The notes beneath the pieces were generated by a model. That model saw nothing but the letters and a program-made list of their open reading frames with translations. It made no database searches and had not been told where the DNA came from. Source: an uncultured bacterium (GTDB lineage: Bacteria > Babelota > Babeliae > Babelales > Vermiphilaceae). Taken from it: 64,000 nucleotides of DNA. Shown here one piece after another: positions 4,802 to 26,796 of this stretch; positions within the stretch are counted from its first letter, which is position 1, and every line of letters begins with the position of its first letter. The stretch is from contig OY968764.1 of NCBI GenBank assembly GCA_963695335.1, positions 672,001 through 736,000 of the forward strand, written 5' to 3'. The translations under genes were made by a program, and so were the position numbers.

Positions 4802-5860
4802 ATGTATAATTATATCGTTAAGTTGTATTTTTTCGCGCTCGTCCTGAACTTGTTGAAGGATTTCTTCGAGCGCTCAAAGATATCCTTCGACAGGCTCAGG
4901 ACGAGCGCAGGAAAGAAAGTTTTTCTTGCAATGATTGTTGGAATGTATTGTGTGCAAAGCGTGCGTCCAATGGAGCCTGAAAAGTGGAATGGTGATACAA
5001 AAAATGATGTTGCAATAGAGATGTATCATTTTTGGTCCAATGATTATAATCAAAATATCAATAATATAAAGAATGTTGATTTAAAAGAAATTCGGTCAAC
5101 TTTAAATAAAGAAGATTTTTTATCCAGTTCTGATGATACATTAAAGCATCTCTTGTATCTTTCTACGATACGTAAAAATGACGATAAAACGCTTTTTACG
5201 CAAAAACAACAGAATAAGTTTGATGCAGCTTTTAAAACAAAACAATCTGTTCCTATGTGGTTTGGTATTAACGGAGCAGTTATTGTTGGTACATCACTTT
5301 TGCCATGTATTAATTTTACTGGTTTATTACAATGTTCAAATGCAACATTAGTTGGGTGTTTATCTCAACTTGTTACTATCACAACGCCAACAGTAGCTTC
5401 TGTGGCAGGAGCTCTTACTGTGGGGTTTGTGTCTTTATATGCTACGGGACTTTCGCCTGATTATTCTTCTCGTAAAGCAAATAAAGTGCAAGATGAAATA
5501 GGTCATTTGCGTACAAATTATGCAACAATAGCCAAATATTGGATTGATATTTATTTTAAATATCCAGAAAAAGCCCAGTACATTGCTCAAAAAATTGATA
5601 TTGAAGCGTTGAGAACAAGGGCGCAATTAAAAACGCATAAAAAGAGAAGTGGCAGCTCTTTGGTGACTCCTCTTGAAGAAGCATGGCATTTTATTACGCA
5701 TAAGACTGTTCTGATAACATTTACGGAAATTGAAAATTACCTTTATAATAAGATGCATAGCCAAGATATCGATCTTTTTAAGAGACGAATTGAATCCCTT
5801 GAAAGCATTATTTATCAACAAAATGCAGAAATACAAAAATTGAAACAAGAAAAAATATGA
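4802..5860 (+). CDS. Putative secreted/membrane protein with an in-frame palindromic repeat in its N-terminus
   Basis: GAGGGG RBS before ATG 4802; PME motif after a hydrophobic segment; two central hydrophobic segments; C-terminal coiled coil; stop overlaps metG start (ATGA). Confidence 0.7.
   Translation: MYNYIVKLYFFALVLNLLKDFFERSKISFDRLRTSAGKKVFLAMIVGMYCVQSVRPMEPEKWNGDTKNDVAIEMYHFWSNDYNQNINNIKNVDLKEIRSTLNKEDFLSSSDDTLKHLLYLSTIRKNDDKTLFTQKQQNKFDAAFKTKQSVPMWFGINGAVIVGTSLLPCINFTGLLQCSNATLVGCLSQLVTITTPTVASVAGALTVGFVSLYATGLSPDYSSRKANKVQDEIGHLRTNYATIAKYWIDIYFKYPEKAQYIAQKIDIEALRTRAQLKTHKKRSGSSLVTPLEEAWHFITHKTVLITFTEIENYLYNKMHSQDIDLFKRRIESLESIIYQQNAEIQKLKQEKI
4835..4908. repeat. Family A palindromic repeat
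   Basis: GCGCTCGTCCTGAACTTGTTGAAGGAT...ATCCTTCGACAGGCTCAGGACGAGCGC; close copy at 59148-59221. Confidence 0.9.
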
Positions 5861-15949: not shown

Positions 15950-16128
15950 GAAAAATCCTTTTTATATCTGATTTTTTAATTTAATAGTAGCTTAGACAAT
16001 GTTTTGACGTCGGTCAATACATTGTTGTTTTGTAAAGAAATAATATTTTGATGTTCCCTTGATACTTTCTCTTTGAATATTGCATATTTGAATAAGATGA
16101 TAATGTTTTTATAAAAATAGGGGGAGTG

Positions 16129-17466
16129 ATGATGAAGATGAATAAAGTACATATTGTATTGGCTGTTGTTTTGCTTGGCAATGCAGTTGCAATGCAGGGC
16201 ATGATGCAGCAGGGAAGAAAAGTATTCAAAAAACCAATCTATAGACCAGTAAATCAGAGAGTTAATAAGCCAACTACTCAGACATGGGGAAATTGGTTTA
16301 AATCTTTTTTTCATCCTCAAGCAGTCAAGCCGGTAGAAAATTATGCTGCCGAAGAAGTTTACAGTTCGCCTTTTGAGAAGGGTGGGCAGAAGAGAATGTA
16401 TAGTACATATCAATCGTCTACCACCGAATCTTTTGCAATCCCAGGATCTTTTGAACCTTCTTGGAAGTCGAAACTGCCTTGGACAGATGAGTATAAAATT
16501 GAGGAATTGTTTAAAGAATTGAATGATGATCTTGATGGGAGAATTAATGCTTCGGGGCTTCGTAGTGCAGGACGTATGCCAGATGCTTATCAGTTCCAAA
16601 AAATGTATGACTTGATCAAGGTGTCTGGATACAATCCTCTTAATAGATTTATTCAAGGACAACCTTCTTTTTCTGCAAAAATGCTGAAATTTGTTTTTAG
16701 ATATGGAAGAGTTGATATAAGCAATTATGGAAAAATTTTAGATATGTCTCATGCTATGGGGGCTCGTATTAGAAAAGAAGAGGAAAATGAAATTGGTATA
16801 CTTGTGAGTCATTTCTTACAAAGCATAGGTATTAATCGAATAAGCAGCATTGATGCAAAGTGGAGATTATCTGAAATTATAGCATTTGCTCGGCCAATAT
16901 TGGCGGCTTATAATATTTTACGTAGCATTGAGATACATATTAATACTCCGTTTATAAATTGGGATAAGCTTGATGAATTGTGTGATCTTCAATTAGATCC
17001 TGAAAAATTGAAAAAAACAATTGAAGATTTACAAAAAAATCCAAAGGAATTATTAAATTCTCACTATGGGATGATCAGAATTGTAATGATGACTAAGTAT
17101 GGGCGCAGCGATAGACCGATTACTGGTGAGTATGTAATTAATTTGTTAAAACAAGCAGGTTTTTCAGGTATTGGTGCAAGAAGACAAGAATATCATGAAC
17201 AGCAGTATGGATCATCTCAGTTTGGAACAGAATCTTTTGGTACGGCAAGAAATAAACTTGCACAATTACTTGGCATTGCAGCTAGCTCATCAGAAAAAGA
17301 AATCAGTAATGCATATCGCAAGTTTGTGATGCAGTATCATCCTGATATTACCAAAAATCCGAATAATCCAATGTCATTGAAATTGAAGAATGAAATTAAT
17401 CCAGCATGGGATGAATATAATAAAGCATTGAATGCGGTTAAGCAGGAGAAGGGTGGTAGGGAGTAG
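16129..17466 (+). CDS. Secreted protein with C-terminal J domain
   Basis: GGGGAG RBS; signal peptide; LLGI..SSSEKEISNAYRKFVMQYHPD...EINPAWD; exact start uncertain. Confidence 0.8.
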   Translation: MMKMNKVHIVLAVVLLGNAVAMQGMMQQGRKVFKKPIYRPVNQRVNKPTTQTWGNWFKSFFHPQAVKPVENYAAEEVYSSPFEKGGQKRMYSTYQSSTTESFAIPGSFEPSWKSKLPWTDEYKIEELFKELNDDLDGRINASGLRSAGRMPDAYQFQKMYDLIKVSGYNPLNRFIQGQPSFSAKMLKFVFRYGRVDISNYGKILDMSHAMGARIRKEEENEIGILVSHFLQSIGINRISSIDAKWRLSEIIAFARPILAAYNILRSIEIHINTPFINWDKLDELCDLQLDPEKLKKTIEDLQKNPKELLNSHYGMIRIVMMTKYGRSDRPITGEYVINLLKQAGFSGIGARRQEYHEQQYGSSQFGTESFGTARNKLAQLLGIAASSSEKEISNAYRKFVMQYHPDITKNPNNPMSLKLKNEINPAWDEYNKALNAVKQEKGGRE

Positions 17467-17472
17467 TTTTAT

Positions 17473-17647
17473 AAGCGCTCGAAGATATCCTTTAACCCCA
17501 ACAATCGTTACACTCTTATTGGGGACCCCGATTGGAACGGAGTGAAAATTGGGGTAAAAGATATCCTTCAACCTGTCTTCGCCAAGGCTTCGGCAGGCAC
17601 GGCAAGTTCTTAAGACAGGTGTTTACTAGTGAGCCTGTCGAACTATC
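17473..17647. repeat. Nested composite repeat (families A, C and B) flanking the IS110 right end
   Basis: A centre 17473-17493, C unit 17495-17555, A arm GATATCCTTCAAC..CAAGTTC split by B at ~17572-17603, A arm TGAGCCTGTCGAA 17630-17642. Confidence 0.8.
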
Positions 17648-17664
17648 AGCGATTATGATCAAAG

Positions 17665-18630
17665 TCAAGTAGAATAGGCATTTTTATTAGGTGCCCACTT
17701 TCTATTTTCAGTAAGAAGAACATTAGCAAGTATAATAAACTTGCGCATTACAGCAATTAGGGCAATCTTAGATGGTTTTCCTTCTTCACGTAATCGCTCA
17801 TAAAATTTCTTAAAATCTGGATTATGTTGAACAGCTGAAAGTGTAGGCATATACAGCATTTTTCGTGGTAAGGATCTACCTTCTCTAATGATAGATTTTT
17901 TCTTATAATTACCACTTTCATTGGTGTATGGAGCTACGCCTAATAAGGCTGCAACTTGCTTATTTCCAATACTTCCTAATTCAGAAAAAAAAGCAATTAA
18001 CGTTGCTGATGTTCCTTTTCCAGCACCAGGAATTGATGTGATAATATTTTGCTTATGTTTCCAGTCATCATCATTATCAATTAATTGTTCTATTTCTTTT
18101 TCCAATTCCTTAACTTGTTCATCCATAAAATCAATATGTTGTTGAATTTTGTCTTTACAAAATTCAACTTGTGGATGAGCCAATCGTGTTTTTTCTCGAC
18201 TGATCATTCCCGTCAAATCACTTTTCCTTCTTATTAAAGCTTTCAATAATTCTTCATTCTCTTTTGGCACTTTAATGCGTGTTTCCTCTGATAATTCTTT
18301 TTGTTGTGCAAACAAAGCAATCATAGATGCATCAATCTTGTCTGTTTTTGCTTTTGCTCCATCTGATGCGATAAACGACTTAATTCGTTTCGGCTCAATT
18401 AGCCATACAAAATATCCAGCATTACTTAATGTACGAATCAATAATTTTTCGTATCCACCAGATGATTCACATACAACGCGAACAACATTGTACTCAGAAA
18501 ATACATTAAGTATTTTATTGAGACCAGCGGCGCTATTTGGCGTTTTAAAATATTGATTCAATGGACGTAAAAAAACATCCAAATTATCTTTTGAAATATC
18601 GACACCAACAAATATTTCTGTTAGCTTCAT
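17665..18630 (-). CDS. IS110-family (DEDD) transposase / bridge recombinase
   Basis: GVDISKD, CESSGGY, KTDKIDA (RuvC-like DEDD); SIPGAG and GVAPYTNESG (Tnp-domain serine); ALIAVMRK; ORF intact. Confidence 0.95.
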   Translation of the reverse strand: MKLTEIFVGVDISKDNLDVFLRPLNQYFKTPNSAAGLNKILNVFSEYNVVRVVCESSGGYEKLLIRTLSNAGYFVWLIEPKRIKSFIASDGAKAKTDKIDASMIALFAQQKELSEETRIKVPKENEELLKALIRRKSDLTGMISREKTRLAHPQVEFCKDKIQQHIDFMDEQVKELEKEIEQLIDNDDDWKHKQNIITSIPGAGKGTSATLIAFFSELGSIGNKQVAALLGVAPYTNESGNYKKKSIIREGRSLPRKMLYMPTLSAVQHNPDFKKFYERLREEGKPSKIALIAVMRKFIILANVLLTENRKWAPNKNAYST

Positions 18631-18807
18631 AGTAATTCTTCCTCATAATACGAGCCTTGCGCTCAAGCGATTATTCGAATCTTCTACAAATCTGGTTGAT
18701 AGCTCTTTAGCTGAAAACGGTTCTTGTAACCTAGGACGAGCACAAGACGCTATCAACCTTTTTTTATAGCCTAGTTTCCTAAACCTAAAAAACTCAATAA
18801 TCTACAT
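18631..18807 (-). ncRNA. Predicted IS110 bridge RNA (5' hairpin, target-binding loop, donor-binding loop)
   Basis: Stem GGUUGAUAGC/GCUAUCAACC encloses GCUCGUCCU + hairpin + UUCAG; second loop AUAAUCGCU + GAGC/GCUC hairpin + UAUGAG; ends approximate. Confidence 0.8.
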
Positions 18808-18855
18808 GCTTTTATCATATGAGGACGAGCGCGAGAAAGGATTGGATTTAAAGTG

Positions 18856-18888
18856 TATGCGGTGAAGAAAATTTTTTTTCACCGCATA
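18856..18888 (-). terminator. Hairpin immediately downstream of topA
   Basis: TATGCGGTGAA...TTCACCGCATA. Confidence 0.6.
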
Positions 18889-18892
18889 TTTA

Positions 18893-21142
18893 TTATTTTG
18901 CAGATGTATAACCGCACTCTTTATTCAAACAAACAAGCGTAGTTTCACCTTCTTTATTTGTTTTTTTAACTAAGAACGGCCACTTACATTTTGGACATTT
19001 CTTTTCTTCGATAGGGTCAAAGATTGCAAATTTACATTTTGGATATCCAGCACAGCCCCAGAATTTGCCGCCCCGCCATGCGCGTTCAATAATTTCATCA
19101 CCACTTTCCGGGCAATGGAACGGTAATGTTTTACGTTCAACGTATTTGCAATCAGGGTACCCTGAGCATGCAACAAAATCACCGTACTTACCTTTAAGTT
19201 GGCGTAACTGTTTGCCGCACGTTGGGCATTGTTTATCAAGCAGTTTTGGTGCTTCATGTTCTTTTAGTTCAATTTTGCCATGTTCGTCACGTGCAAAATT
19301 AGAAGTAAACGTACATTCAGGAAATCCAGTACAACCTAAAAACTCACCAGCTTTGCCAAAACGGATTGCCAATTTATGTTTGCCACATTGTGGGCAGATC
19401 ATATCAATTTCAACCGCTTTTTTGCCACCATCTTTGCCAGCAAACGCTTCTAAATCTTTTTCAAATGTTTCATGGAAACTTCTGAGTAATGTGTCGCGCT
19501 CAAGCTCACCTTCTGCAATTTTATCAAGCTCTTCTTCCATACGTGCAGTGAATTTGGGGCTCATGAGTTCTGGTAAATTTTTAACCAACATTTCTGTTAC
19601 GGTCATACCCAATTCTGTTGGTACAAATTTCTTTTTTTCAAGATTTGTATATGCACGTGCGCGGATAGTATTAAGAACTGCCACGTAGGTACTTGGTCGG
19701 CCAATACCTTCTTTTTCTAACTCTTTAACAAGTGAAGCTTCAGTAAATCGTGCAGGTGGTTGTGTGAAATGTTGCTTAGGATCAATCTTTTTAAGATCAA
19801 CATTGTTTTTTGCTTTAATGTCAGCAGGCAGCGTAACTTTATCTTCTTTTTCGCCTTCTTCCTCTTCTTGATATACAAGTAAGAAGCCATCAAAGATAAG
19901 CGTTGAGCCAGTGACTTTGAATGTATAAATACCACCTTTAATCACTACTTGGCGCTGTGCATATTCAGCCGGTTTCATTTGGCATGCAACAAATCGTTTC
20001 CAAATAAGATCATATAGTTTTGCTTCATCAGCAGGGATATACGGTCTTACTTTGTCAGGTGTAAGGGTAATATTAATTGGTCTAATTGCTTCATGGGCAT
20101 CTTGTGTTTTACCTTTTGATTTTTTTTCAAACATGTTCGCTTTTGCAGGTAAATAATCAGCAGGAAAATTCTTGTTGATATATGAACGTACTTGCGTCAT
20201 TGCCGTATCAGAGATACGTAATGAGTCTGTACGCATATAGGTGATTAATGCCACAGGAGTAGAGGCATCTGTAAGCGGTAAACCTTCATACAGATGTTGC
20301 GCAAGTTGCATTGTTTTTTTAACAGAAAACCCAAGTAAGTTGTATGCTGCTTGTTGCAAGGTACTGGTCATAAATGGAGGCAGTGGATTTCTGGTGCGGG
20401 TTTTATCAGTTATTGAATCGATCGCATAATTTTCATTTTTGAGCGCTTCAATAACCTTTTTTGCCGTTTTTTCATCTTTAATTTCTGCTTTTTCTTTGCC
20501 AATATTAGTGAGCGGTGCAGCAATTGTTGCTTTGTTGTGTGCAAAGTTACCGGTGATACTCCAGTATTCTTCGGGAACAAAGTTGCGGATTGCAGTTTCA
20601 CGATCACAGATCATGCGCAATGCTACTGATTGCACGCGTCCAGCAGAAAGACCTTTTGCTATTTTGCGCCATAAAATAGGAGAAACTTCATAACCTACCC
20701 AGCGGTCTAAAACTCTGCGTGCTTGCTGAGCTTCTACTAATTTTATATTAATTTCACCAGGTTTGTTAATAGCTTCTAAAATGGCAGGTTCGGTAATTTC
20801 GTTAAAAGCGATTCGGTATGTTTTTGTGCCTTTTTTGGCGACTTTATTAATTTCTTGTGCAATGTGCCATCCAATAATTTCCCCCTCACGGTCAGGATCG
20901 GGAGCTATATAAATGGTATCGCAGGTGGATGCTTGTTTACAGATGCCGGCGATAGTTGCTTCTTTACCTTCTAAGGTAACGTATTCAAGGTGGATACCTT
21001 TTTTATCCATGGTGACGCCGATAGATTTTGCAGGAAGATCTTTAATATGCCCCATGGTGGACATGATCACAAAATCTTTGCCGAGAAACTTTGCAATGGT
21101 TTTAATTTTTGCTGGTGACTCAACGATGATTAACTTTTTCAT
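18893..21142 (-). CDS. topA: DNA topoisomerase I with C-terminal zinc ribbons
   Basis: LIIVESPAK, DPDREGE, SAGRVQS, LITYMRTDS, AHEAIRP, C4 repeats. Confidence 0.97.
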   Translation of the reverse strand: MKKLIIVESPAKIKTIAKFLGKDFVIMSTMGHIKDLPAKSIGVTMDKKGIHLEYVTLEGKEATIAGICKQASTCDTIYIAPDPDREGEIIGWHIAQEINKVAKKGTKTYRIAFNEITEPAILEAINKPGEINIKLVEAQQARRVLDRWVGYEVSPILWRKIAKGLSAGRVQSVALRMICDRETAIRNFVPEEYWSITGNFAHNKATIAAPLTNIGKEKAEIKDEKTAKKVIEALKNENYAIDSITDKTRTRNPLPPFMTSTLQQAAYNLLGFSVKKTMQLAQHLYEGLPLTDASTPVALITYMRTDSLRISDTAMTQVRSYINKNFPADYLPAKANMFEKKSKGKTQDAHEAIRPINITLTPDKVRPYIPADEAKLYDLIWKRFVACQMKPAEYAQRQVVIKGGIYTFKVTGSTLIFDGFLLVYQEEEEGEKEDKVTLPADIKAKNNVDLKKIDPKQHFTQPPARFTEASLVKELEKEGIGRPSTYVAVLNTIRARAYTNLEKKKFVPTELGMTVTEMLVKNLPELMSPKFTARMEEELDKIAEGELERDTLLRSFHETFEKDLEAFAGKDGGKKAVEIDMICPQCGKHKLAIRFGKAGEFLGCTGFPECTFTSNFARDEHGKIELKEHEAPKLLDKQCPTCGKQLRQLKGKYGDFVACSGYPDCKYVERKTLPFHCPESGDEIIERAWRGGKFWGCAGYPKCKFAIFDPIEEKKCPKCKWPFLVKKTNKEGETTLVCLNKECGYTSAK

Positions 21143-21806: not shown

Positions 21807-21931
21807 ACCCTTCGATACATTCTCTTCCGCAAAGCTACAGAGAACACTCAGGGCGAGCGGTGGGAGGTGCAATAAGTTATTTTCTTCCGCTCGTCCTGAG
21901 TGTTTTTGCTTGCAAAAATGTATCGAAGGGT
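21807..21931. repeat. Family A' palindromic repeat (arms carry internal hairpins; B-like insert in left arm)
   Basis: CCCTTCGATACA..CACTCAGGGCGAGCGG...CCGCTCGTCCTGAGTG..TGTATCGAAGGG. Confidence 0.9.
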
Positions 21932-25513: not shown

Positions 25514-26796
25514 AATTACATGTATCAAGTATGATGATTACTAAATTTATTAAATCAGTTAGAGCACCTCTCACCGCTCGCCCTGAGTGTTTTACGAAGC
25601 GTAGCGTAGTAAAATGTATCGAAGGGTGCAAAAATCAAAAGTTATTGTTATGTCGCATCCTGCGATACATTTTTGAAGACAAAAACACTCAGGACGAGCG
25701 GAGGGTAAGCAAGTGTATTTTTGTAGTCACCATTTTTATGACATCTTTCTTTACCCATCCTTTCTCCTACGATTCCGCAATTTATAAAGCTCAAAAGGGC
25801 AATTGGCAAGATGCGCACAGTGCATTAAGCAGTATTATTACGGATAATCCTGATAGAGCAGATGTTATGTATGATGCAGGAGTTGCTGCATATAATCTTG
25901 GCAACAAATGTCAGGCAGCAACTTGTTTTGCGCGTGCAGCTGAATGTAGTGCTGATAAAAATATTGCGTTTTGTGCTCATTTTAATGCGGGCAATACATA
26001 TGTTGATGAAAAAGAATTAGAACAAGCGCTTGTAGAATATGATAAAGCGCTTGCAATAGAATCTGATAATGAGTATGCGCGTCATAATCGTGATCGTGTT
26101 GCGCAGATGTTACAAGAGCAGGAAAAACAGCAAGAGAATAAGCAAGATGATCAGCAGCAGAATAAAGATCAAGAAAAAAATGAACAAAACCAGGATGACA
26201 AGCAAGATCAGGATAAGCAGCAAAAAGATAAGCAAGATGGACAGCAAGACAGCCAAGATTCCTCCTCCGCTGAAGCTTCGGCGGACAGGCAAAACCAAAA
26301 GCAAAATGGTAATGATAAAAAAGATGGTCAACAAAACCAAAACGGCAACGACACGCAAAATGAAAAAAACGACTCATCGCAAGATGAATTGTCAAATAAG
26401 CAATCCCAAGGTGATAGCGATCAAAGAGACGCTGCAAACAACAGCAAAGACACACAGCGACAAGAGTATGGGAAGAATAAAAAAGAGCGCCATCAAAATT
26501 CCACCAATGATAAGAAGGGGGATGGTAAAAATGAGTTTGATAAACAATCGCAAGATGCACAAAAAGAGGGCAATGAGCAACAAAGAGATAAACATGGAAC
26601 AACTCCTGGTCAACAAAATATAAGTGATGATAAAGATAATCTATCAGCGCAAGAGGGTCAAGAGCAAGCGATCACTGATCCATGGCTTTTGAGAATTCTG
26701 AATGATCAGGAAATGCTTGATAAGACAGTTAATAAACAGTTAATGGAAGCAAAAATTCGTCAACATGGTGGAAAAAATGGTCAAAATTGTTGGTAA
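25510..26796 (+). CDS. batC: BatC-like TPR protein with Q/D/K/N-rich tail; carries two in-frame palindromic inserts
   Basis: TPRs (YDAGVAAYNLG, HFNAGNTY..ALVEYDKAL), low-complexity tail, terminal W; ATGA overlap with batB. Confidence 0.8.
   Translation: MKLHVSSMMITKFIKSVRAPLTARPECFTKRSVVKCIEGCKNQKLLLCRILRYIFEDKNTQDERRVSKCIFVVTIFMTSFFTHPFSYDSAIYKAQKGNWQDAHSALSSIITDNPDRADVMYDAGVAAYNLGNKCQAATCFARAAECSADKNIAFCAHFNAGNTYVDEKELEQALVEYDKALAIESDNEYARHNRDRVAQMLQEQEKQQENKQDDQQQNKDQEKNEQNQDDKQDQDKQQKDKQDGQQDSQDSSSAEASADRQNQKQNGNDKKDGQQNQNGNDTQNEKNDSSQDELSNKQSQGDSDQRDAANNSKDTQRQEYGKNKKERHQNSTNDKKGDGKNEFDKQSQDAQKEGNEQQRDKHGTTPGQQNISDDKDNLSAQEGQEQAITDPWLLRILNDQEMLDKTVNKQLMEAKIRQHGGKNGQNCW
25574..25701. repeat. 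Family A' palindromic repeat inside the batC reading frame
   Basis: CCGCTCGCCCTGAGTG..GTATCGAAGGG...CGATACATTTTTGAAGACAAAAACACTCAGGACGAGCGG; right arm nearly identical to 30370-30413. Confidence 0.9.
26260..26290 (+). repeat. Family B 31-bp palindromic repeat in frame in batC (SSSAEASADR)
   Basis: TCCTCCTCCGCTGAAGCTTCGGCGGACAGGC; 3 mismatches to the reverse complement of 57545-57575. Confidence 0.85.

Follow-up and report, generated by a model that had tools for sequence, protein, structure and literature searches.

An IS110-Family Insertion Sequence With a Predicted Bridge RNA in the Palindromic Repeats of a Babelota Genome

The 64,000-nucleotide stretch of DNA analyzed in this study (hereafter the window), which comes from an uncultured bacterium of the Babelota, carries on its minus strand an IS110-family element of ~1.17 kb at 17648-18821. 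Very probably, it is an insertion sequence of the IS110 group that is intact, has been active recently and uses bridge-RNA-guided recombination to move. The present analysis shows its anatomy, copy number and insertion sites, the conservation of its catalytic residues and the covariation of stems and guides among its relatives. Its transcription, the binding of the RNA by the protein and catalysis are predicted by analogy with IS621. All features that define an IS110-group bridge system and are testable on sequence were found. The element is compact (1.17 kb, 321 aa) and apparently fully intact, and the sequence directly reveals its target and donor, the core, the handshake bases and the promoter. 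The coordinates of its features are given in Table 1.

Table 1. Positions of the element, its gene, the predicted bridge RNA and the associated target and donor sequences in the window.
Feature	Position	Strand	Sequence, basis or remark
Whole IS110-family element	17648..18821	-	1172 bp plus one CT core copy (17648-17649)
Recombinase gene, 321 aa	17665..18630	-	RuvC-like DEDD domain, coiled coil, Tnp domain; D11, E55, D97, D100, S239
-35 box TTGACT	17663..17668	-	In right end; contains recombinase stop codon TGA
-10 box TATGAT	18814..18819	-	In left end
Predicted bridge RNA, ~177 nt	18631..18807	-	5' end from position of -10 box
5' stem-loop	18767..18787	-	GAAA tetraloop, 7-bp stem GGUUUAG/CUAGGCU; sequence, in MFE fold
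Target-binding module	18694..18758	-	Outer 10-bp stem, inner stem, internal loop, GGUU/AACC hairpin; MFE, RNAalifold, pair counts
Outer 10-bp stem of target module	18749-18758 with 18694-18703	-	GGUUGAUAGC with GCUAUCAACC
Inner stem of target module	18744-18747 / 18704-18707	-	UCUU / AAGA
Target-loop hairpin	18728-18731 / 18719-18722	-	GGUU / AACC
LTG	18733..18741	-	GCUCGUCCU; equals left flank 18822-18830, 9/9 in all 3 copies
RTG	18711..18715	-	UUCAG; complementary to CT-GAA 5/5 in 2 copies, to CT-GAT 4/5 in window copy
Target-loop handshake guide	18710	-	C; next base after RTG; pairs with donor position 7 (G)
Donor-binding module	18634..18681	-	Closing stem, internal loop, GAGC/GCUC hairpin
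Donor-loop closing stem	18677-18681 / 18634-18638	-	GAUUC / GAAUU
Donor-loop hairpin	18661-18664 / 18652-18655	-	GAGC / GCUC
LDG	18666..18674	-	AUAAUCGCU; equals right end ATAATCGCT, 17648-17656, 9/9
RDG	18642..18647	-	UAUGAG; complementary to left end CT-CATA, 18818-18823, 6/6
Donor-loop handshake guide	18641	-	G; next base after RDG; pairs with target position 7 (C)
Left flank, left target GCTCGTC-CT	18822..18830	-	GCTCGTCCT; terminal arm of host palindromic repeat; DNA, not RNA
Right target GATAG...	17560..17647	-	Start of ~90 bp variant repeat; third base differs from guide-specified GAA
Predicted donor DNA for recombination			ATAATCGCTCATA
Predicted target DNA for recombination			GCTCGTCCTGAA
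Predicted circle (RE-LE) junction			...ATAATCGCTCATATG...

Copies and Insertion Sites

A search of its own genome, a single contig of 1.37 Mb, identified three copies of the element that were 100% identical over ~1.19 kb. On the left, where the copies share the target repeat, the identity stopped at 18832/18833, and on the right it stopped at 17646; lining up the three copies set the ends of the element at 17648 and 18821. All three copies read GCGCTCGTCCT / CATATGAT...ATAATCGCT / GA, in which slashes mark the joints. A CT dinucleotide flanks the element on both sides, of which the second (18822-18823) belongs to the target and not to the element. The insertion site common to all three copies was GCTCGTC-CT/GA in a GC-rich palindromic repeat and no copy was found at an unrelated site, in keeping with the site specificity that a previous model-generated interpretation of this DNA (the sequence-only reading) had proposed. 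The right flank of the two other copies was GAACTTGTTGAAGG (CT-GAA) and that of the window copy was CT-GAT; after the shared GA, the two other copies go on as GAACTTGTTGAAGGATATC and the window copy as GATAGTTCGACAGG.

The non-coding left end upstream of the gene is 191 nt long and the right end extends 17 nt past the stop codon. This combination of a long left end and a short right end without long terminal inverted repeats is that of the IS110 group. Over 17300-19200, the contigs of four DNA runs (X1-X4) were low-depth pieces without joints, and no circle junction and no empty site were seen in them. Their loose ends at 17646 and 18833 matched the sequences that flank the two other copies.

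Immediately upstream of the element, its strand carries a 749-aa ORF (18893-21142) whose translation resembles DNA topoisomerase I. This ORF is followed by a 16-pair terminator-like hairpin at 18855-18889, beyond which the element is found. On the other side of the element is a 446-aa ORF on the plus strand (16126-17466), which ends in a stretch with an HPD motif (…YRKFVMQYHPD…) that resembles a J domain.

The motif GCTCGTCCTGA is the outer arm of the GC-rich palindromic repeat, which is abundant throughout this AT-rich genome (35.7% GC). With at most one mismatch, it occurred 10 times in the window, compared with 0.21 occurrences expected and at most 2 in 100 shuffles. These counts and the right flanks of the two other copies bear out the earlier claim that CTGAA is the continuation in intact repeats. 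Genome-wide, the free copies of the target numbered 72 for the 11-mer and 14 for the perfect 12-mer ending in GAA, of which ~0.05 would be expected from composition. In each full repeat, one arm ends in GAAC and the opposite arm in GAGC. The free 11-mers ending in GAG numbered 56, and none of the three insertions was at a GAG site, the odds of which are ~0.016 by arithmetic if the third base were irrelevant. The repeat that holds the window copy is a variant of ~90 bp starting with ...CCTGATAG. The element thereby illustrates how palindromic repeats, where they are numerous in a reduced genome, provide an abundance of harmless landing sites.

Several other features of the repeats were observed. 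At 17560-17649, the DNA to the right of the window copy is a member of a separate ~90-bp repeat family. Six other members (L004-L009) share 86-92% identity with it, and the family begins with a degenerate target motif, GCGCTCATCCTGATAG / GCGCTCATTCTGATAG. The sequence GCTCG[TC]CCTGA was found 148 times genome-wide. Palindromic repeats in the window were located at 4837-4906, 21848-21899, 25576-25699, 29410, 30432 and 59150, and they comprised at least two subfamilies, GCGCTCGTCCTGA...TCAGGACGAGCGC and CGTTCG...TTCGACAGGCTCA...CGAACGG.

Recombinase

The predicted recombinase matched two Pfam domains, PF01548 (DEDD_Tnp_IS110; E 6.1e-22, residues 8-151) and PF02371 (Transposase_20; E 1.3e-16, residues 195-278). 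Its closest solved structures were those of ISCro4 (9t56, E 1e-41) and IS621 (8wt6, E 7.5e-40). Residues D11, E55, D97 and D100 were aligned with D11, E60, D102 and D105 of IS621, respectively, and S239-G240 were aligned with S241-G242. In IS621, the DEDD and Ser residues form a composite active site, as described in the accessible part of Hiraizumi et al. (2024; PMC11208158). Moreover, D11, E55, D97, D100 and S239-G240 were invariant in an alignment of 35 homologs. Judged from its translation, the recombinase is intact, possessing both Pfam domains and all five catalytic residues of IS621, which agrees with its earlier description as an intact 321-aa protein. A database search yielded 665 homologs at E ≤ 1e-3, of which the nearest (79-86% identity) were on short metagenome contigs. 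The nearest relatives were from metagenome genomes of Dependentiae/Babeliales.

Structure and Guides of the Predicted Bridge RNA

All coordinates that the sequence-only reading had given for the hairpin, stem, guides, flank and ends were recovered when they were read again on the minus strand. The same reading had placed the bridge RNA at 18631..18830. This holds for the RNA from ~18807 to ~18631; positions 18822-18830, however, are target DNA. With a start near 18807, the RNA would be ~177 nt long if its 3' end is at the start codon, and its GC content is 0.40.

The single-sequence fold of 18631-18820 had an MFE of -54 kcal/mol (z -3.8), and 1 of 200 shuffles was as good. Of the proposed layout, this fold recovered the 5' hairpin, the stems of the target loop and both small hairpins but not the closing stem of the donor loop, in place of which the 5' leader paired with the linker and LDG. 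Because the single-sequence MFE fold lacks this stem, its assignment is based on the comparison with relatives described below. Over 180 nt counted from the predicted start, the bridge layout had an energy of -38.1 kcal/mol, compared with -52.1 kcal/mol for the free MFE and -42.2 kcal/mol with the guides forced open. A scan of 17400-19100 against Rfam 15 with E up to 10 gave only chance-level matches, such as snoRNA and miRNA families, and none to any bridge-RNA family that Rfam 15 may contain.

A 17-bp helix is possible between the 5' leader (18790-18803) and the linker plus LDG (18667-18684), and the fold of the naked RNA that contains this helix is lower in energy than the bridge layout. 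Compared with shuffles, the leader-LDG helix had a z of -3.45 in the window element and a z below -2 in 4 of 10 close relatives. It was considered as a conserved feature and dropped, as it was significant in none of the distant relatives.

The target specified by the guides is GCTCGTC-CT-GAA and the donor is ATAATCG-CT-CATA. All four guides fit these sequences and meet at the CT core, as had been read from the sequence before. The bases next to RTG and RDG are predicted to be handshake guides. In Hiraizumi et al. (PMC11208158), such bases are described as pairing, once the strands have been exchanged, with position 7 of the other DNA.

When the right end is joined to the left end, TTGACT-17-TATGAT is formed, which matches 10 of the 12 consensus bases, compared with 7 of 12 in the integrated state; these numbers reflect consensus match only. 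A promoter scan of the integrated sequence found no good promoter at the left end. Among 24 elements with mapped ends, 16, including the one in the window, had a TTGAC-like hexamer that starts 21 nt from the right end (20 nt in one locus). An excision-dependent sigma-70 promoter across the RE-LE junction was described for IS621, as given in the accessible text of PMC11208160.

Covariation Among Relatives

A total of 160 related loci were fetched. The leader alignment comprised the window element and the 14 relatives nearest to it, whose proteins were 42-47% identical. RNAalifold predicted 21 pairs from these 15 sequences, 15 of which showed compensatory changes. The predicted pairs included the stems of the target loop and the closing stem and hairpin of the donor loop. 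In a manual structure of 25 pairs, which was drawn from the same 15 sequences on which it was tested, 91.2% of 374 cells were paired, compared with 79.3 ± 1.0% in shuffles, none of 500 being as high. In addition, 17 pairs of this structure were changed on both sides, compared with 9.7 ± 1.7 in shuffles, and the pairing fell to 30-40% when partners were slid by 1-3 columns. Both-side changes were found in 8 of the 12 pairs of helix 1 in the target module, and compensatory changes in 4 of 5 pairs of the donor closing stem and 2 of 4 pairs of the donor hairpin.

A covariance model, R1, was built from the leader alignment of the 15 sequences and matched the window, itself a seed sequence, at 18628-18763 with 94.5 bits. 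R1 was run on 138 of the 160 fetched loci, the other 22 being further copies from genomes already represented. Matches just upstream of the gene and on its strand were found in 59 of 99 and 32 of 39 loci, or 91 of 138. Matches outside the seed included L095 (137 bits), L012 (97 bits), L023 (80 bits) and L128 (64 bits), and R1 also matched GC-rich elements with protein identities of only 31-38%. In its own genome, R1 matched exactly the three copies of the element and nothing else.

The guide stretches were taken from the R1 alignment, which provided 57 usable rows after four secondary matches on the minus strand, L095 (no ORF called) and L034 and L100 (gaps in the guide columns) were dropped. 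This model-based extraction replaced an alignment-free search for exact 7-mers shared by guides and ends, which was clean in the close clade and noisy in distant relatives. In 51 of 58 rows, the first 7 nt of LDG were found again downstream of the stop codon of the same element, compared with 35 of 2786 cross pairs between elements with different 7-mers. The LDG 7-mers were of 15 different sequences, 13 of which were present at their own right ends. The commonest distance from the stop codon to the right end was 17 nt, which was found in 22 of 51 relatives and is also that of the window element. The LDG 7-mer was not found downstream in 7 of 57 relatives, and the rule for the left end (the core plus the reverse complement of four RDG bases) found no left end in 25 of 57 rows, which were left out. 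Because of these missing left ends and 7-mers, the statistics on guides and flanks are those of 24 mapped elements. The failures of the left-end rule are probably due to a longer or discontiguous RDG in many relatives, and such an RDG was described for IS621 in the accessible part of PMC11208160.

Both ends of the 24 elements were set from the donor guides alone, and the target guides had no part in setting them. LTG matched its own left flank at 5.33 of 7 non-core bases and the flanks of other elements at 2.91, and RTG matched its own right flank at 4.33 of 5 bases and those of other elements at 2.75. None of 10,000 permutations reached the observed sum for LTG or RTG. Covariation of guides and flanks in homologs, which the sequence-only reading had named as a check, was thus observed, with LTG and RTG both tracking their own flanks. 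Moreover, the handshake base of the target loop pairs with donor position 7 in 22 of the 24 elements, and that of the donor loop pairs with target position 7 in 19, whereas these bases pair with the DNA of their own loop in just 3 and 2 of the 24 elements, respectively.

Targets varied widely among close relatives, such as CAACC-CT-TTTTAG, GGCCGA-CT-TCGCGA and GTCGCG-CT-ACAGG, and the donor of the relatives stayed near ACAATCA-CT-TGTA. These variable targets and the steady donor fit the variable first loop and conserved second loop described in an Extended Data legend of PMC11208160, from the part of that article that is accessible. Relatives with a nearly constant donor and differing target loops constitute a natural series of reprogrammed guides. 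The donor of the window element, ATAATCG-CT-CATA, differs from that of the relatives, and its LDG and RDG differ in step. In four close relatives (L015-L017 and L072), the last two bases of LDG and LTG mismatch the element's own core; in L015, for instance, the core is TT, LDG ends in AG and LTG ends in CC. These may be natural core-mismatch variants.

Proposed Mechanism and Alternative Explanations

By analogy with IS621, excision would join the right end to the left end and place the promoter TTGACT-17-TATGAT across the junction. An RNA of ~177 nt would be transcribed from the left end and would bind the DEDD/Ser recombinase. The first internal loop of this RNA would pair with the target GCTCGTC-CT-GAA, the bottom strand of which would be bound by LTG GCUCGUCCU and the top strand by RTG UUCAG, and the second loop would pair with the joined ends ATAATCG-CT-CATA via LDG AUAAUCGCU and RDG UAUGAG. 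Strand exchange would occur at the shared CT core, aided by the handshake pairs between C 18710 and donor G7 and between G 18641 and target C7. The outcome would be insertion into one arm of the host palindromic repeat.

Three other explanations were weighed against this one. That the matches between loops and flanks arose by chance in AT-rich sequence has a negligible probability. RTG (5 nt) and RDG (6 nt) are indeed short, and nothing beyond their shortness favors chance. An exact 9-mer match in a leader of ~190 nt has odds of ~7e-4 by arithmetic, and the element contains two such matches in addition to the two short guides, all four in the expected loops and sharing the CT core. Given that the same matches are made with different sequences in relatives, where none of 10,000 permutations was as good, a chance origin of the guide matches is excluded in practice. 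It is improbable, too, that the element has the anatomy of a bridge-RNA system but is an immobile, fixed relic that neither excises nor expresses its RNA in this host. The three copies are 100% identical over ~1.19 kb, the ORF is intact with all catalytic residues, and all guides and handshake bases are intact, which argues against a relic. Such a relic would nevertheless account for the presence of just three copies despite 14 perfect unoccupied 12-mer targets, for the weak promoter of the integrated state (7/12) and for the lack of a circle junction or empty site in the contigs examined from the four DNA runs, although low excision is normal for IS621, as reported in the accessible part of PMC13626964.

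Alternatively, the folded left end might serve chiefly as a cis-acting leader for the control of transposase translation, with the guide matches taking no part in the choice of sites. A likely ribosome-binding site, GAGG (18641-18644), lies within the RDG/handshake stretch, and the 3' strand of the donor-loop closing stem, frequently rich in purines, stops 0-12 nt short of the start codon in 41 of 59 relatives. A pure leader, however, leaves it unexplained why the loops track their own flanks and ends, and we regard this explanation as very improbable. The roles of leader and guide are compatible with each other, and it is conceivable, albeit rather unlikely, that in this clade the bridge RNA doubles as the leader of the recombinase mRNA and acts as an autoregulatory switch. 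The predicted RNA reaches the start codon, so that the likely ribosome-binding site and the RDG/handshake stretch overlap, and in many relatives the 3' strand of the donor closing stem has a sequence such as GAGGT or GGGTC. In such a switch, translation of the recombinase would be stopped once the donor loop folds or the recombinase binds to it, and in the window element the leader-LDG helix could keep the free RNA inactive until the protein binds. The closeness of the closing stem to the start codon, both at 18631-18647 and in relatives, suggests a link between RNA folding and translation. No description of such a switch was found in the literature searched, and the main text of PMC11208160 does not contain the words 'Shine', 'RBS', 'ribosome' or 'start codon'.

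Comparison With Known Systems

The system of this element would work like that of IS621 and belongs to the same family. As the sequence-only reading had stated, the class of mechanism, first described in 2024, is a known one and not a new kind. Bridge-RNA-guided IS110 elements have been catalogued by the thousands since 2024, and the element described here therefore adds little in principle. IS621 targets REP elements, and the element in the window is similarly inserted into a host palindromic repeat. Similar to IS621, it encodes a two-domain DEDD + Ser recombinase (321 aa, compared with 326 aa) and has a long left end, a short right end and a CT core. In both, a 5' stem-loop precedes the target loop and the donor loop, LTG and LDG are 9 nt long, RTG and RDG are short and include the core, handshake bases correspond to position 7, and the promoter is split across the RE-LE junction. 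IS621 of Escherichia coli comprises a bridge recombinase and a bridge RNA of 177 nt (Durrant et al., 2024, PMC11208160; Hiraizumi et al., 2024, PMC11208158; structures 8wt6-8wt9), and the target-loop/donor-loop layout claimed earlier for the window element is the one that the accessible part of Durrant et al. describes.

Different from IS621, however, the recombinase of the window element is only remotely similar to that of IS621 (E 7.5e-40 over residues 7-303), and its target and donor sequences are wholly different. Its nearest relatives are in Dependentiae/Babeliales metagenome genomes. In addition, its predicted RNA is AT-rich (GC 0.40) and abuts the start codon, with RDG and the handshake base overlapping the likely ribosome-binding site. 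The best match among solved structures was the ISCro4 transposase (PDB 9t56; E 1e-41 over residues 7-303), in which the same catalytic residues were aligned.

No paper mentioning IS110 together with Dependentiae was found, and the target, donor-junction and stem strings of the element were not found in the readable part of the supplements of PMC11208160, which does not imply their absence from the remainder. On these two grounds, this member of the family may be undescribed.

Insertion of IS110-family elements into repetitive palindromic intergenic sequences is shared with ISPpu9 and ISPpu10 of Pseudomonas putida, whose hosts and guide sequences differ from those of the window element. ISPpu9 inserts into palindromic repeats, according to the accessible part of PMC12288879, and the accessible part of a preprint on ISPpu10 (bioRxiv 10.64898/2026.03.19.712850) describes palindromic-repeat insertion in which a stem-loop encoded by the target adds specificity. 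The seekRNA elements of the IS1111 group, as presented in the accessible part of PMC13604230, have a recombinase of the same family and the same guide logic. In the IS1111 group, a long right end, downstream of the gene, contains the guide RNA, and the subterminal inverted repeats are long (PMC11208160, Extended Data Fig. 10, in its accessible part). Different from the IS1111 group, the RNA of the window element is upstream of the gene, and its right end reaches just 17 nt past the stop codon.
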